In this document: positions 15,773-62,789 of the stretch, in pieces
Numbering within the stretch: the first letter of the stretch is position 1
Layout: each line of letters begins with the position of its first letter
DNA from: a virus
DNA length: 64,000 nucleotides
IMG/VR virus record: IMGVR_UViG_3300045125_000034
Span: 1 to 64,000 of that record
Reading direction: 5' to 3' (one strand)
Translations under genes and position numbers: made by a program
Notes under the pieces: generated by a model
What the model was told of the DNA's origin: nothing
Databases searched by the model: none
What the model saw: only the letters and a program-made list of their open reading frames with translations

Positions 15773-16091
15773 ATGACTACGACGAACACCACCATCACGA
15801 TCAAGCCCCGTCAGAGCCAACTTCCTTGCCGCCCTTGAGGCAAAGTTCAGGCCGACCTGCGACCATCACCCGTAAGGCTCTTGTCACCTTCAAGCAGACA
15901 TGGAGTCAGGGTGAGATTGGTCCTCTCGGATTCGCTCTCCGTTGCCTGCGTGGCTCACGAACTCAAGCAACTTCACCGTTCAGCGAGCGGTCTATGCCCT
16001 CCCGTGGAATGAGTACGATGCATTCTTGGCTTCTGCATCGGGCGGTTCGCAGCCGAATACTCCCACGGATGCCGCTGATTCTGCGACCTAA
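15773..16091 (+). CDS. Small protein paralogous to the N-terminal domain of the AAA ATPase (frameshifted)
   Basis: FLAA...ITRK...PAWLTN...RAVYALP versus FLTA...ITRP...PAWLTN...RGQYRLP at 13803. Confidence 0.6.
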
Positions 16092-28301: not shown

Positions 28302-29058
28302 ATGACACGATTCTTTAGATACCTCGCCGCTGTAGCCGCAGTAGTTTTGGCAAACAGCACTTTTGCACAGACTGCTTCGGCTCCTGCTCCGAAGGCATCA
28401 CCTTCTATCTTCAGCGTAGTCTCGGTTGATGAGACCTTGACTTTCTGGGGCAAGAAGAATGTTGATACTGTTACTGAGTTGGACTCAACCGTTAAGGGCA
28501 AGTTGTTTGATCTTATCGGTTGGCATGTGACCGTTCCTGTTTACTCACAGGACTACATGGGTTACGGTGCTATCGACATCGGTGCAGACTATGCTCTGTT
28601 CGCGGCGAGAAGTTCCTTGGCTCAGTCACCAACTTCAGCGTTGAAGCGGGTGCATGGTTGCCAACAGGTTCAGCAGGTTACGGCACAGACAATGTTAACC
28701 CCCATGTCGGATTCAACTACGACATGACTTGGGGCTAGCGTAGTCTACACGCAGTCCTTCGACTACCTTTGGGTAGGTGAGGTTGCTTATAGCCCCGTGT
28801 TCGGCAACTACAACAACTACGGTCTCAACGCCGAGTCGTTCGTTGCTTACAATTTCGGTGCAGTTTTTGGTTGGTGCTGACCTCAACCAATGGTACACAA
28901 GTGGCTCAAATGTAGCCTTCCTTGGACCCAAGGCTGAGTGGAAGGTTTCCAACAATGTTGAAGTCAACGCAGGCTTCGGTGTTCCCGTATGGCAGGAAAT
29001 CAATGCTGCAAACGAGAACAGTTGGAATGTGACCGCAGGCTTGTCAATCAACTTCTGA
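28302..29058 (+). CDS. Outer-membrane beta-barrel-like protein (frameshifted)
   Basis: Sec signal peptide (MTRFFRYLAAVAAVVLANSTFA), amphipathic beta-strands, C-terminal ...VTAGLSINF. Confidence 0.65.
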
Positions 29059-35895: not shown

Positions 35896-35901
35896 CCCCC
35901 T

Positions 35902-35975
35902 GTTCCCGTAACTCAGTTGGATAGAGTAGTTGCCTTCTAAGCAACAAGTCGCAGGTTCAAGTCCTGCCGGGAACA
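35902..35975 (+). tRNA. tRNA-Arg(UCU)
   Basis: Cloverleaf; GTTGC-CTTCTAA-GCAAC. Confidence 0.93.
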
Positions 35976-35990
35976 GCTTACAATTTAATA

Positions 35991-36251
35991 TGCTCGTGGT
36001 AACTCAATTGGTAGAGTAGCCGACTTCAATAGGAGCGGTTTTGTAGGAATACAAAACATGAAACTCGTCAAATTCGGTGGACGGTTGAAAGACCCAACGC
36101 CGAGCCAAGCCCAAAAGGGAAGGTGTAGAGACTTGACGGCGGGCATTCAGAACGGATGAAGGCAAAGTCCAGACCACGAACTGTAAGGGCGGCGTAAGCC
36201 GAAGTGGTAAGTTAATCGGTGAGGTTGTGGGTTCAAGTCCCACCCAGGCAG
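35991..36251 (+). tRNA. tRNA-Lys(UUU) interrupted by a group I intron
   Basis: Exon1 ...GCCGA-CTT (to 36026) + exon2 TTAA-TCGGT...GTGGG-TTCAAGT-CCCAC; 5' acceptor strand imperfect in the read. Confidence 0.75.
36027..36211 (+). ncRNA. Group I intron (IC3-like), ~185 nt
   Basis: P1 CUU|C-aaua-GGAG with U.G wobble, P2 GNRA hairpin, core CAAATTCGG / CCGAGCCAAG / GTAGAGACT / AAGGCAAAGTCC, terminal omega-G. Confidence 0.85.
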
Positions 36252-36291
36252 CTTAGGGAGCACTAAATAGATTAGAGGAGTGTGCTAATCC

Positions 36292-36648
36292 ATGAACAAA
36301 TGCAAACATTGCAACAAGGAATTTAAATCTCATCCATCCAAACAATCAAAGAAAAAAGCAGAAGAATTATATGTGGTTCTTGTGCAGTTTCTAAAGAAGA
36401 TGGAAGACAAAAATTGAGTTTGTTGAATTATTAGGTGGTAAATGCCAAAGATGCGGGTTTAAAGGTCATCCGGGTGTGTTTCATTTTCACCATAAAGACC
36501 CATCACAAAAATCCCACGAATTAAATGGAAACGGTTTGTTGACAAAGAAAGATATAACGAACTTTCAAAGTGCGAATTATTGTGTGCTAACTGCCATCAA
36601 ATAGAACATTCAAACACAGATTTGATTAAAAGTTTTGGTCTGCTATAA
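36292..36648 (+). CDS. HNH endonuclease (free-standing homing endonuclease), frameshifted
   Basis: LGGKCQRCG...FHFHHKDPSQK...CELLCANCHQIEH; AT-rich. Confidence 0.85.
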
Positions 36649-37364
36649 TTGATAGCAGGTCTGCGAATCTAAATAAACTCACCCATCTCTTGAAAGGAGA
36701 TTACATCATGGACACTCTTCTTTACGGTCTTCTTGGTCTTTCACTAGCAACAAATCTCGCTACTTTCGTTCACGGGTTCTTCGTTCGTTCTGAGCGTAGG
36801 GGCCGAAGAGAATGAGAGAAGTCTCTTCTGTTCGTGACGAACTTCTCAATCGTATTGATGATGTTGAACGCAATGTTGATGGGGTGAATAGTCACCTTCA
36901 CGACACAATCAACAGCGAGGTTGCCTCTCTCACCCGAAAGATTGAGGAACTAGATCGCACCTTTACTTCCATTATTGACAACTTGGAGGAAGAGGTATAC
37001 AATAGTCAGGATCGTTTCTTTGAGAGTTGCAGAAGCGGCAGAACCCGTTTGCTGCAAGACAAGAAGCGGAACTGATGCTGGGGATCGCCATCCCCACCAA
37101 CTTTAACATAAGGAGAAAACAATGGCAAAGTTTGAATCAGAGCCATGCCCTGTTGCTGGTGGCTGCGACAAGTTGACCTGCGTTCTCAGCAAGGTTGGCA
37201 TTAACCGTAGCCTTCTTGTCACTCTCGCTCTTCTTCCATTCGCTTGGACCCGGAGCCGTGTGGCTGAAGAACGCCGTCGTAGCCGTCGCCAATGTGGTGA
37301 TGGGTCTTTTCGGCAACAACCCCGCTTGCTGATACAAGCGGGTTAATTGTGCTAGAGATGCACT

Positions 37365-38136: not shown

Positions 38137-38221
38137 GGGCAGATGGCAGAGTGGTCTAATGCAGCGGTCTACTAAACCGCAGAGGTTAACGCCTCCGAGG
38201 GTTCGAATCCTTCTCTGCCCG
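38137..38221 (+). tRNA. tRNA-Ser with anticodon read as ACU (GCU if miscalled)
   Basis: GCGGT-CTACTAA-ACCGC; long variable arm; G73. Confidence 0.85.
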
Positions 38222-38245
38222 CTTGGAATGCTAAATATGATAGCC

Positions 38246-38609
38246 ATGCACATATCATTCTTCCTACAACTACAATCTCAACTACGAGTCCTTCATTGGC
38301 AAACCAAGTCGTATGCCGAGCTACAAGGCTCTAGGTAAACTATACGATGCTTTGGACGGTTTGATTGACACCTATGTTGAGACCCATGCAGGAAAGTATG
38401 GCAACACCTTGGGCAATCCAAACTTCTCATTCAGCGTCAGCAACTACAAGGACTCCAATTCGTTGGGTGTCATCACCACGGCTATTGAGTTCCTGTCTAT
38501 TGAGTTGCCCAAGAAGTTGAATCCTAACACCGACACGGATCTACTAAACATTCGTGACGAGATGCTTGGTGCGCTCAATCAGACAAAATATCTGCTTCGT
38601 CTAGAATAG
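38246..38609 (+). CDS. Ferritin/Dps-like phage protein (DUF5856 type), frameshifted
   Basis: LHWQTKSYAE(H)KALGKLYD...LIDTYVE...DLLNIRDEM...YLLRL. Confidence 0.8.
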
Positions 38610-39033: not shown

Positions 39034-40089
39034 ATGAAGATTGAAGAAGATGTCAAGTTGGATTTCGCTGATGTCCTGATTCGTCCTAAGCGAAGCAACC
39101 TTGAGAGCCGCAGCAAGGTTGACCTAAACCGAACATTCAAGTTCACTTTGCCAAACGGCGAAGAGACATGGACAGGCATTCCTCTCGTAGCGGCTAACAT
39201 GGATTCAACAGGGACCATCCCTATGGCTAAAGCACTATCCAAGTGGGAGGCTATGGGTGCGGTTCATAAGCATGTTCCGATTCGTGAGTGGAAGGAAGCC
39301 AACATTCACGATTGGTTTCCCGCCGCCATCTCATGCAACATCATCTATACGATGGGCATGGGAGACAACAACAGCAACGCCAAGGAGATGTTGAAGGCTC
39401 AAGAGGTGCTTGATACGCACCCACAGATCAAGTTCATCTGTATTGATGTTGCTAACGGATACACACAGAAGTTCGTCAACTTCGTTAGCAACATTCGTGG
39501 GTTCTTCCCGAAGCACATCATCATTGCAGGTAATGTAGTCACGCGAGGAGATGACGGAGGCACTACTTCTCGCAGGTGCTAACATCGTCAAGGTTGGTAT
39601 TGGGCACGGCTCAGTATGCACTACACGCAAGGTCGCGGGCGTGGGGTATCCACAACTCTCTGCAATCATGGAGTGTGCTGATGCTGCTCATGGTCTTGGC
39701 GGTTTCGTCATGGCTGATGGTGGCTGCACTTGTCCGGGTGACATCGCAAAGGCATACGGTGCGGGTGCTGACTTTGTGATGATCGGCGGTATGCTCTGCG
39801 GAAGCGGACGAGGCAGCAGGAGAGATCACAGAGAACGGCAAGGAGTTCTATGGCATGAGTTCTGCTGATGCTATGCAAAAGTATCTCAGGCGGTGTTGCT
39901 GCCTACCGTGCACCAGAGGGCAAGAAGGTTTATGTCAAGGCTAGTGGTCCTGCCGATGCAACGATTCGACAGATACTTGGTGGAGTTCGTTCTGCTTGCA
40001 CTTATGTCGGTGCAGAGAGGTTGAAAGACCTTCCGAAATGTACAACATTCGTGAGGGTTAACCGGCAACTCAACAACATCTTCACCTAA
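39034..40089 (+). CDS. guaC: GMP reductase (frameshifted)
   Basis: [75 protein letters not shown]. Confidence 0.95.
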
Positions 40090-41545: not shown

Positions 41546-41581
41546 TTGACAATACTTGGTTAGATGCTATACTACCTGTAT

Positions 41582-41655
41582 GGGATCGTAGACCAACGGC
41601 AGAGTCAACGGATTTAAAAATCCGTAAAGTATGGGTTCGAATCCCATCGGTCCTA
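41582..41655 (+). tRNA. tRNA-Leu(UAA), short variable-arm type
   Basis: ACGGA-TTTAAAA(A)-TCCGT; the extra A is probably a homopolymer error. Confidence 0.8.
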
Positions 41656-41659
41656 TAAT

Positions 41660-52290: not shown

Positions 52291-54839
52291 CTACACCCAT
52301 GTAGCCGTCAAAGGCTCTAACATCCTCTTCCGTGGCTAATGAGAACGGTAAGAAGGTTTCCTACAAGGCAGACTTCGCACCGACTCTGTTTGTTCCCGCC
52401 AAGGGCAAGAAGACCGAGTGGGCTTACCCTTGATGGCAAGCCTGTAGAGCCATTCCAACCCGGCAGCATCCGCGACTGCAGCGAGTTCATCAAGGAGTAT
52501 CGTGGGGTGAGCGTGGTTTTGAGATATACGGTAACTCCGAGTGGGTCTATCAGTACATCGGCAAGCAGTACCTCAATGAAGTTGAGTACGATCCTTCGCT
52601 ACTTCGTGTTGGGTTCATAGAACATTGAGACCGAGAGTGAGGATGGATTCCCTAACATCAAAACTGCTACCGAGAGAGTCAATGCTATCACCCTGAAGGT
52701 CAAGGGCAAGACATTGGTGTTTGGCTTGGGTAAGTTTGCCCTGCCCGATTCCAAGTGCTTCCAGTACGATGACGAAGCCAAGATGTTGCAGGAGTTCCTT
52801 GCAGCATGGGAGGCTTTAGACATAGACATCATTACGGGATGGAACATCAACTTCTTTGACATCCCATACCTTGTCAACCGCATCACACGACTGTTCGGTG
52901 AGAAAGAAGCCATGCGTCTTTCCCCGTGGAGAGACATTCGCTCCCGAACAGTAGTTGTGATGAACAAGGAGAACGAGGTCTATGACTTGTTGGGGATAGC
53001 AACCCTTGACTACTTTGACCTGTACCGCAAGTTCACATATGTGAATCAGGAGTCCTATGCCCTGAACCACATTGCTTGGGTGGAGTTGGGGGAGCGTAAG
53101 AAGCACTACGAAGGAACCCTGTCTGAATTCTACAAGAGAGACTTTCAGAAGTTCATTGAGTACAATCAGCACGATGTTGCTCTCGTAGAGATGCTTGAGA
53201 ACAAGTTGAAGTTGCTTGAACTATCGTTGGCTCTAGCCTACTCCGCTAAGGTGAACCTCAACGATGTCTTCTCGCAGGTGCGTACATGGGATGCCATCGA
53301 TTATCACCACCTGACCAAGAAGAAGATCGCTATACCCATGAAGCGTGGGGATGCTGAGAAGGAAGACAAGTTTAGAGGGAGCCTATGTGAAGGAGCCTCT
53401 TGTGGGCAGTCACGATTGGGTAGTCTCGTTTGACTTGGACTCGCTGTACCCGCACCTCATCATGCAGTACAACCTCAGCCCCGATACCAAGGTGGTTGAC
53501 CGACAGGGTAGAGCCTCTAGCCTACACGGTAGAGGACTTCCTCACGCAGAGACACGCGGGTGCGGACACGCCCACGCGGGCGGTACATGGAGAGATGTTT
53601 GACAAGGGTTACTGTCGTTGCTGCTAACTGCGTCTGCTTCACCAAGAGCAAGCAGGGCTTCCTGCCCGAACTCATGGAGACCATGTATGAGGAACGCAAG
53701 GCTTTCAAGAACAAGATGCTTGAAGCCAAAGCGACACTAAAGAAGTTAGGGGAAGATGCTCCTGCCGATAAGGTCAAGCAGTTGAAACTTGACATTACTC
53801 AAGTACCACAACTTTCAGTTGGTGCGTAAGATTCAGTTGAACTCTGCGTTCGGTGCTTGTGGCAACCAATACTTCCGCTACTACGATCCGCAGATAGCCG
53901 AAGCCATCACCTATTCGGGTCAGTTGTCCATCCGTTGGATTGAGAACGCTCTGAACAAGTTCTTGAACAAGACTCTCAAGACCAACAGGATAGACTACAT
54001 CATCGCAAGCGACACGGACTCTGTATACATCCGTCTTGGTAACTTGGTCAAGCAGATCATGCCCAATGAGACTGACCTGCAGAAGATCACCAAGTTCCTG
54101 AACCGCTTCTGTAACGAAGTCTTGCAGCCACTCATCAACAAGGAGTTTGTCCAACTCGCAGAACAGCAGCAGGCTTACTCGCAGAAGATGAACATGAAGC
54201 GAGAGGGTATCTGCTAGTCGTGGCATATGGACGGGCAAGAAGCACTACATCCTTGCCATATGGATGGGCGAGGACAATGTGCTGTTGCAGAAGCCTGAGA
54301 TCAAGATGATGGGTATTGAGACTGCCAAGAGCAGCACCCCGTTCATCGTGCGTGAGGCTCTGAAGAAGGCTATCGGTATCATCATCAACGGAAATAGGGA
54401 GGAGTTGGTCTCGTTCGTTGGTTCCTTCAAGGAAACCTTTAACGGTAGCCCCGTGGAGGAGATAGCGTTCCCGCGTGGGTGCAACAACCTCAAAGAGTAC
54501 AAAGACCCAACGATGATCTACAAGAAGTCTACCCCAATCGCCGTGAAGGGTGCGTTGATTTATAACCATTGGCTACGCGAGAGGAACCTGACCAAGAAGT
54601 ACCCTCTGATAGGTGACGGAGAGAAGGTCAAGTTCATCTATCTGCGAATGCCCAATCCCGTGAAGGACAAGGTTATTTCGTTTAGCGGCAAGATTCCGAA
54701 GGAGTTTGGGCTGGAGGCGAAATACATAGATTATGAGGCTCAGTTTGATAAGTCCTTCGTAGTCCCCCTTACTACTATCACTAACTTGATCGGATGGAAC
54801 ATCTTTGAAATGAGTACCTTGGAGGATCTATTGTCATGA
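52283..54839 (+). CDS. gp43: Family B DNA polymerase (T4 gp43-like), frameshifted
   Basis: ITGWNINFFDIPYL, YNQHDV, SFDLDSLYPH, KIQLNSAFG, ASDTDS, MGIETAKSSTP. Confidence 0.97.
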
Positions 54840-61548: not shown

Positions 61549-62789
61549 TGAAAACAGCATTGATCGTGAGAAGTATTTTGTTGTTACCTATATGGTCGAG
61601 TCTGATAAAAGTCTTAGAGATGCTGCTTGGAATATTGCCATAGGTCAAAGTGTCGGAAACCCAAATGTTAGGGGAACAGGTGGGAGACCGGAAGACCTGT
61701 TTAAAAATCATTCGTGTCTCATCCTCGGGGACGAAGGGGAACTTAGTGTCCAAAAAATAGGAAAGGTCAAGATTGCTTTCCCCGTAATCAATACAGATTG
61801 GGAAACAGACGGAATTAGCCATTTCATGTGCCAAGTCATGGGTGGGCATGTGGACATTGATTTGGTTAAGAGATGTCGTGCTATTGATATAGATTTCCTG
61901 CATAGTGTTACAAAGCACTTCAAAGGTCCACGGTTTGGAATAACGGGAATGCGTGAATTTACAGGGCAATACGATAAGCCACTTTTGGTGCTATCATAAA
62001 GCCTAAGATTGGAATAAGCCCAGAGACACTATTGGATATGGTTAAGGAACTAGTAGAAGGTGGGGTTGACTTCTATAAAAGAAGATGAAATCATGTCCAA
62101 CCCATCATTCTGCCCGCTAGACACTCGGGTGGGTATGATCTCCAATTACTTGGCATCACAATCAAGAAATGTGGTATTTTGCCACACCATAAACTGCGAT
62201 CCGCATGTTCTAGAAAGTAGAGTTAGTCGCATACATTCTCTTGGCGGTAATGGAGTACACATCAATGTATGGAGTGGGTATGGTTCATACAACAGCATAC
62301 GAAAGATGGATCTGCCGATATACATTCATTTCCAGAGTAGTGGAGCAAAAGTCACAACCAACATTACAAATCAGTTCAGTATTAGTTGGCCTGTCATCTG
62401 CAAATTGGCAACAATGATGGGAGTCGATACCATTCAGACGGGAATGGTTGGTGGATACAGCAACGATAATCCCGAAGAAATTCTAGAGTGTGTTCGTATT
62501 TTACAACAGGGGAATACTGTCCCTGTCCTGAGTTGCGGATTGCATCCGGGTCTTGTTGATAAGATAACCTCACTAGTAGGTAACGACTATTTGGGCAATG
62601 CTGGCGGTTCAATTCACGGACACCCAAATGGAACACTATCGGGTGCTAGAGCAATGCGTCAGGTCCATAGACAAAACTTATGGGGTCGAGTACAATGAGG
62701 CAATAGCCAAATGGGGTAAGGTTCAGCCCGAATTCAACATAAAGCAGTTGTATGAAACTGTAGAGTACCAACTAAATTCTAAGGAGTAA
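61532..62789 (+). CDS. RuBisCO-like protein (form IV RLP), frameshifted
   Basis: KGPRFGITGMR, IIKPKIG, GGVDFIKEDE, PVLSCGLHPG, AGGSIHGHPNG..GARAMRQ. Confidence 0.92.

Follow-up and report, generated by a model that had tools for sequence, protein, structure and literature searches.

We identified a phage tRNA-Lys(UUU) gene that is split between U34 and U35 of its anticodon by a 185-nt group I intron without an open reading frame (ORF). The intron is IC3-like and seems to be mobile among related phages, while the irregularities of the recorded exons would mostly be insertion and deletion (indel) errors. We put the probability of this reading as a whole at roughly 0.8. The window analyzed throughout is the first 64 kb of the linear, 145,204-bp IMG/VR virus record IMGVR_UViG_3300045125_000034, which is estimated to be 67% complete.

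The tRNA-Lys locus

The tRNA cluster of the window extends from 35.9 to 42.9 kb and comprises 14 genes called by ARAGORN, none of them at 35991-36251. The split tRNA-Lys was not called on the window when introns were allowed either, and a search of the 145-kb record for a further tRNA-Lys gene found none. The locus is organized as follows:

35901..35977, + strand: tRNA-Arg(UCU), called by ARAGORN (Rfam tRNA, 71 bits); upstream neighbor and synteny anchor
35992..36026, + strand: tRNA-Lys exon 1, with the acceptor 5' strand, D arm, anticodon stem 5' strand and loop nucleotides C32, U33 and U34
36027..36211, + strand: group I intron, 185 nt, ORF-less, supported by Rfam alignment, covariation count, MAFFT alignment and sequence
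36212..36251, + strand: tRNA-Lys exon 2, with U35, U36, A37 and A38, the anticodon stem 3' strand, variable loop, T arm and acceptor 3' strand
36292..36648, + strand: free-standing HNH endonuclease gene, directly downstream; spread over at least two frames in the window, an intact 119-aa ORF in the related contig L076

The same tRNA-Arg gene lies upstream of tRNA-Lys in four related viral contigs (L035, L076, L125 and L128). With introns allowed, ARAGORN called Lys(ttt) with an intron of 183-185 nt in L020, L035, L067, L069 and L076, and joining of the exons gave a cloverleaf with anticodon UUU for these five relatives and for the spliced window sequence alike. Elsewhere in the window, ARAGORN called a tRNA-Ser with the unusual anticodon ACT (38137-38222) and a tRNA with an 8-nt anticodon loop (taaa; 41581-41656), the latter possibly an artefact of indel errors in the record. 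Two protein-coding fragments were also observed, a family-B DNA polymerase exonuclease domain at 52714-53433 and a RuBisCO large-chain-like fragment at 62060-62698 (Pfam E 8.7e-20).

Record quality and exon irregularities

The window record appears to be rich in single-base indel errors, so that frame-dependent readings need care. Its longest ORF measures 338 aa. When 22 ORFs from the relatives' contigs were compared with the window, 13 matched in two to three reading frames, and one 350-aa ORF mapped successively onto frames 1, 2, 3 and 1 across 39034-40086. Both the HNH gene and its downstream neighbor are broken in the window and whole in L076. Frame-split ORFs are found, for example, at these window positions:

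28302-29055: frame-split ORF
36292-36648: frame-split ORF (the HNH gene)
36690-37075: frame-split ORF
38246-38603: frame-split ORF
39034-40086: frame-split ORF

Compared with L035 (96.5% identical) and L076 (95%), the window shows no indel in the intron and all of its indels in the exons. One surplus G lies in the 5' acceptor strand and another at 36221, and the 3' acceptor strand is scrambled, being garbled at 36244-36259. The acceptor start reads GCTCGTGG in the window and GCTCTGG or GCTTCGG in relatives; the extra G near 35996, seen in the window and in no relative, is probably a sequencing error. As recorded, the exons form no canonical cloverleaf, and after in-silico splicing ARAGORN returned a tRNA-Lys whose acceptor stem is irregular and whose variable loop has 6 nt.

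A 194-nt Illumina contig from run X5 (36084-36280) carries the window's own variants at 36113, 36147 and 36182 and departs from the window by five single-base indels and one substitution, all inside 36221-36259. Its version of exon 2 has a regular variable loop, a regular T arm and a ...CCGGAGC-A end. Because this same-strain contig begins at 36084, the extra G in the 5' acceptor strand lies outside its coverage. Since frameshifts hit most window genes and exon 2 is regular in the run X5 contig, both the odd acceptor stem and the 6-nt variable loop are probably indel artefacts. A true 11-nt insertion or duplication in the acceptor 3' strand was considered and dropped, as both the run X5 contig and the multi-frame ORFs favor indel errors.

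The same observations bear on whether the intron might be intact while the tRNA-Lys gene is a decaying pseudogene, in which case the exon indels and the broken HNH gene would be real. The restriction of the indels to the exons, the frameshifts in the adjoining HNH gene and the failure of ARAGORN to find the split gene would all fit such decay. However, frameshifts throughout most window genes are a property of the sequence record, a short-read contig that shares the three intron variants has a regular exon 2, and the record contains no other tRNA-Lys. We thus consider a pseudogene unlikely and continue with an intact tRNA-Lys gene whose recorded exons contain errors.

Splice junction

To locate the junction we rely on tRNA modeling and on homology, both of which place the intron between U34 and U35 (36026/36212). 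When 9 x 9 = 81 junction pairs were excised in turn, only the removal of 36027-36211 gave tRNA-Lys(ttt) in ARAGORN. The joined exon sequence GTAGAGTAGCCGACTTTTAATCGG is found uninterrupted, as an exact match, in seven viral contigs. Two of these, L125 and L128, share synteny with L035 and the window, including the same upstream tRNA-Arg and the same small downstream gene. Because these syntenic intron-less alleles read exactly exon 1 followed by exon 2, the junction CUU/UUAA (the slash marks the splice site) is settled by homology, and since they read UUU, the mature loop is CUUUUAA with anticodon UUU. Insertion after U34 of a tRNA-Lys(UUU), as proposed in the initial annotation of this stretch, is thereby borne out. 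In DNA letters, the spliced joint would be GACTT followed by TTAATCGG, and the T stem of the intron-plus allele is GTGGG...CCCAC.

The initial annotation had also raised a junction displaced by one nucleotide (36025/36211), which would yield tRNA-Asn(gtt). It was rejected because the intron would then end in A, with a Watson-Crick U-A pair at the splice site, and because the intron-less alleles read UUU; the phage moreover has its own tRNA-Asn. A 27-mer combining the junction with the intron-plus T stem had a match in one metagenome contig, which proved to be an unrelated tRNA-Lys with another D arm.

Intron structure

Using cmscan on the stretch 35950-36300, a match to RF00028 (Intron_gpI) was obtained at 36017-36193 on the + strand that covers the full length of the model (1-253), with 48.4 bits and an E value of 1.6e-11 that applies to this stretch. 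The score lies 1.6 bits under the RF00028 gathering score of 50, which is why a default whole-window Rfam run misses the intron. No second RF00028 match was present in the 145-kb record. Helices were assigned via homology in the Rfam alignment and by inspection (all on the + strand):

36024-27 with 36032-35: P1, CUUC with GGAG; U36026.G36033 wobble at the splice site
36038-45 with 36050-57: P2, 8 bp, loop GGAA
36064-69 with 36138-43: P3
36074-79 with 36098-103: P4
36083-86 with 36091-94: P5, loop GAAA
36104-06 with 36122-24: P6
36110-12 with 36117-19: P6a
36128 and 36130-33 with 36166-70: P7, bulged A36129; guanosine-site pair G36130-C36169
36144-48 with 36154-58: P8
36173-77 with 36204-08: P9, three-way junction with two GUAA hairpins
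36181-82 with 36187-88: P9a, loop GUAA
36190-93 with 36198-201: P9b, loop GUAA
36211: terminal G
36122..36140: 19-nt core GGTGTAGAGACTTGACGGC, comprising the P6 3' strand, J6/7, P7 5' strand, J7/3 and the start of the P3 3' strand

To test the assigned pairs, nine distinct relatives (78-96% identical) were aligned with MAFFT. Standard pairs filled 97.8% of 491 pair cells, compared with 30-42% when the partners were slid by 1-3 columns, and 15 pairs showed changes on both sides versus 2-5 in the slid controls. The observed covariation score was reached by none of 500 shuffles. The two-sided changes fall in P2 (6), P5 (4), P3 (2), P6a (1), P8 (1) and P9b (1), while P7 and P9 are invariant across the nine relatives and thus uninformative on covariation. 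P3, P4, P6, P7 and P8 are paired in 100% of cases. The group I assignment made in the initial annotation is well supported by this covariation together with the full-model Rfam match, and the elements it had listed (P1 with its U.G pair, P2 with GGAA, P3-P8, the GNRA-capped P9 helices and the terminal G) are all present.

The U.G wobble in P1 and the terminal G are retained in all relatives, and G36128, the bulged A36129 and the pair G36130-C36169, by analogy the putative guanosine-binding pair, are invariant in nine sequences. P1 is short (4 bp) and its extension is not conserved, G36037 being A in relatives. The L6a loop reads AAAA in the window and GAAA in relatives. The intron may belong to subgroup IC3, which would fit its insertion in the anticodon loop, its P2 and P9 elements with GNRA loops and its lack of P5abc and P2.1.

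The length of 185 nt is safe because L035 and L076 have the same length without gaps and because Illumina contigs span 36038-36211 gap-free. The size first annotated for the intron (36027-36211) therefore stands, and a true length above 200 nt, which had been named as a reason to doubt it, was not found.

Host tRNAs and distribution of the intron family

We scanned IMG/VR for the exact 19-mer GGTGTAGAGACTTGACGGC and found it in at least 119 viral contigs. With introns allowed, ARAGORN detected a split tRNA around 83 of the 119 matches listed; for the remaining 36 no split tRNA was found. Host tRNAs among the matches listed were then counted by applying the U-1/G-omega rule. The bulk (64) are tRNA-Leu(UAA), with introns of 196-263 nt at the site GACUU/AAAA. 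Another five are tRNA-Lys(UUU), with introns of 183-185 nt, and four tRNA-Met, one tRNA-Thr(UGU) and one tRNA-Arg(UCU) were also counted among the matches listed. Individual loci at which introns with the 19-nt core interrupt viral tRNA-Thr(UGU), tRNA-Arg(UCU) or tRNA-Met(CAU) include L025, L079, L104 and others in L005-L123. The 5' exon end ...CUU/ is common to the Leu, Lys, Thr and Arg sites, which is what P1-guided site choice would predict. Several ARAGORN labels were set aside in this census. Calls of Phe(gaa) were mostly Leu(UAA) once U-1/G-omega and homology were applied, and calls of SeC(tca) and Stop(tta), which the census by the fixed-length rule did not resolve, were read as Lys(UUU) via P1 pairing and homology.

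The window-type Lys intron occurs in 11 other IMG/VR contigs, with lengths of 183-196 nt:

L008, L020, L035, L067, L069, L076, L084, L094, L163, L166, L168: contigs with the window-type Lys intron

The copy in L008 (9366-9578, reverse strand) reaches 196 nt because of an 8-nt tandem duplication (AAGCCCGA) in P6/P6a. A sister lineage in L050, L061, L099 and L100 occupies a site one U further 3' in tRNA-Lys (CUUU/UAA). Its introns are 78% identical and 191-192 nt long (for instance L100:691-900, reverse strand), and ARAGORN miscalls them as SeC(tca). The guide sequence of this lineage is GGAA and not GGAG, the change that P1 pairing requires for the shifted site. In L081 (4219-4433, + strand) we observed a tRNA split as CUU/...G/AAAA, which would give the anticodon UAA; its body is of class I, the variable loop being short. 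ARAGORN calls it Lys with an intron in the stem, and it combines a Leu-like loop with a short variable loop, whereas in bacterial tRNA-Leu the variable arm is long. In 185,579 prokaryote genomes, a 17-mer of the Lys-lineage 3' junction gave 28 matches, all of them without the intron core and below the estimated chance expectation.

The viral location initially annotated for the intron thus holds, while its presentation as a singular oddity was overstated in view of the 11 further Lys copies and of the capsid-gene introns of similar size described below.

Predicted splicing

We infer that the intron self-splices by standard group I chemistry. The C-U-U of exon 1 and the first intron C would pair with the guide GGAG to form P1, in which the cut site is marked by the U36026.G36033 wobble. 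A free guanosine, docked at the G36130-C36169 pair of P7, would attack after U36026, whereupon the guanosine site would be occupied by the terminal G36211. The exons, kept together by the anticodon stem, would then be ligated to give the loop CUUUUAA. The family has colonized several tRNAs whose loop starts with CUU, namely Leu UAA, Lys UUU, Thr UGU and Arg UCU.

Trimming to 185 nt could also have removed peripheral stabilizers and left a group I-derived element that no longer self-splices, being either protein-dependent or an inactive relic. Several hairpins are very short (P5 4 bp, P6a 3 bp, P9a 2 bp), and P1 is short as well, with no evident P10 pairing. No spliced joints were seen when Logan contigs from one DNA run and from three runs of RNA libraries were placed on 35900-36300, although contigs alone are uninformative on splicing. 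Against loss of activity, core and peripheral helices are kept with compensatory changes in twelve contigs, and the GNRA loops L2, L5, L9a and L9b are retained, as selection for folding would give. Further, in the sister lineage the guide has changed in step with the displaced splice site, and the related 205-nt Azoarcus intron self-splices. A relic is thus rather improbable, and we retain a self-splicing intron as the preferred reading.

Probable mobility and the HNH gene

Presence and absence of the intron are polymorphic at one locus among related phages, for which three states were seen:

Window and L076 (also L020 and L084): intron plus downstream HNH gene
L035: intron only
L125 and L128: neither intron nor HNH gene

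The HNH protein of L076 shows the pattern CxxC...HH...N...CxxCH, with a Pfam HNH match (E 0.0018) that is below the cut-off. An HNH gene is adjacent at 4 of 12 intron-bearing loci and at 0 of 7 intron-less loci, an association that is suggestive only, these numbers being too few to claim linkage. When the intron-bearing alleles (window, L035 and L076) are compared with the intron-less ones, the acceptor and T arms differ and the segment from the D arm to the variable loop is identical, which fits co-conversion or replacement of the whole gene. Judged from these alleles, the intron seems to behave as a mobile, dispensable element, and the HNH nuclease may act on the intron-less allele.

Such an arrangement resembles collaborative homing, known from F-CphI with the cyanophage psbA intron and from SegB in the T4 tRNA cluster, in that a free-standing endonuclease gene lies beside an ORF-less intron. 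It differs in that the association of the HNH gene with the intron is statistically insecure.

The dispensability of the intron also speaks to the suggestion, made in the initial annotation, that it protects the phage tRNA-Lys by concealing the precursor's anticodon loop from PrrC or another anticodon nuclease. tRNA-Lys(UUU) is a PrrC substrate and phage tRNAs counter tRNA-cleaving defenses, but the former match appears to be coincidence only, since syntenic relatives keep tRNA-Lys without the intron, the family resides for the most part in tRNA-Leu(UAA), with further copies in Met, Thr and Arg tRNAs, and decoding needs the spliced tRNA, whose normal loop would be a target again; we regard this protective role as very improbable.

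An ectopic RNA contig

In a lake metatranscriptome (run X17), one 207-nt contig with a depth of about 25 matches 36038-36211 with three L035-type substitutions. Directly past the terminal G of the intron, the contig continues with CACTGTGCAGCGAGCC.... In three viral contigs (L169-L171) this sequence lies inside a small phage ORF, where it is preceded by ...GCGAACTT and no intron is present. Two of these three contigs also hold L035 and L076, and the third holds the intron-less L125. The positions concerned are:

L169, reverse strand, offset about 538 from the 5' end: site within the ORF
Window, near 15945-16030: the window's homologue

A 20-mer across the joint seen in the RNA contig was absent from IMG/VR and JGI metagenome contigs; the expected 5' partner junction would be ...GCGAACTT followed by CAATAGGAGC. 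Reverse splicing would be expected to join the terminal G to the RNA that follows an ACUU site. The joint may have arisen by such reverse splicing, by a rare insertion in DNA or as a chimera of the library, and the first of these, as a possibility, is the most interesting lead of this analysis. A more far-reaching idea, that no natural self-splicing group I ribozyme is smaller than the 183-185-nt Lys introns and that these spread in wild phages by reverse splicing into RNAs offering ...ACUU/, is speculative and in our view doubtful.

Relation to known introns

The tRNA-Leu(UAA) introns share with the window intron the site after loop nucleotide 3 (U34), the GACUU/ exon end and the U-1/G-omega configuration, and viral tRNA-Leu(UAA) introns carry its exact 19-mer in 64 cases among the matches listed. 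The window intron differs in its host, Lys(UUU), in its joint (CUU/UUAA versus CUU/AAAA) and in its location in a phage genome. It is also shorter, as the Lys introns of 183-185 nt compare with 196-263 nt for the viral Leu copies of the same core family and with 205 nt for the Azoarcus intron, in line with the compactness initially annotated. In Nostoc linckia NIES-25, ARAGORN found three tRNA introns of 244-299 nt, the fMet one being 70% identical to the window core over 97 nt.

The Azoarcus intron is likewise small, ORF-less and located in a tRNA, with GNRA-capped P2 and P9 elements and no P5abc. Long stretches of its core are near-identical to the window intron (GUCAAAUUCGG, CAACGCCGAGCCAAGC and GAAGGUGUAGAGACU-GACGGC). 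The window intron is about 20 nt shorter, resides in another host tRNA and at another loop position, and has a three-way P9 with two GUAA hairpins.

Pared-down introns of similar kind were found in capsid genes of marine podophages (Pelagibacter phage HTVC120P and uvDeep KM23-C739). These are ORF-less, about 181-190 nt long and 71-79% identical to the window core, two KM23-C739 copies scoring 77-78 bits in Rfam; in contrast to the window intron they occupy a protein-coding host gene, the usual phage situation. The unannotated group I intron of HTVC120P (MH598807.1) lies at about 1474-1664 of L002, and those of KM23-C739 (KT997847.1) lie at 1447-1627 and 2156-2336 of L003. In both records the capsid genes are annotated as two or three separate 'capsid protein' CDS, with the introns filling the gaps.

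Williams 2020 (bioRxiv 10.1101/2020.01.27.920355) raised the bacterial intron-split tRNA classes from four to 21, seventeen of them new, the earlier four being Leu.3Ug, Arg.5Ug, fMet.2Ug and Ile2.5Ug, all IC3. The classic hosts named in the initial annotation (Leu, fMet, Ile and Arg) agree with these four earlier classes, although they no longer describe the known range. According to that survey, group I introns occur at many anticodon-loop positions and isoacceptors, and the assemblies covered are bacterial and archaeal, not phage. In its nomenclature the window intron would be Lys.3Ug.

For phages, Hausner et al. 2014 (PMC3984707) noted that, although phages have many tRNA genes, every intron known at that time interrupted a protein-coding gene. 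Devoto et al. 2019 (PMC6784885) described 'enigmatic' introns in the tRNA genes of Lak megaphages and were unaware of any previous report from phages. The Lak introns also have phage tRNA hosts but were not classified as group I, whereas the window intron is clearly group I. In our search of the open-access literature, no phage tRNA gene was reported to contain a group I intron, and a literature search for a citable statement on the smallest group I intron likewise found none. Measured against these sources, as far as their accessible text extends, the window intron is best described as a new host gene for a well-known ribozyme, IC3-like by its sequence features and near the lower limit of the size range; it is neither unique nor new in its presumed mechanism.

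In conclusion, the IMG/VR data, set against the literature, indicate that a family of tRNA introns is common in phages and occupies several U34 tRNAs. Because standard tRNA finders miss such intron-split genes, phage tRNA repertoires are under-counted. The Lys lineage, whose introns combine a complete core with a length of 183-185 nt, lends itself as a candidate model ribozyme smaller than that of Azoarcus. Finally, the occurrence of intron-plus, intron-minus and HNH-plus alleles at one locus offers a tractable system for the movement of an ORF-less intron.
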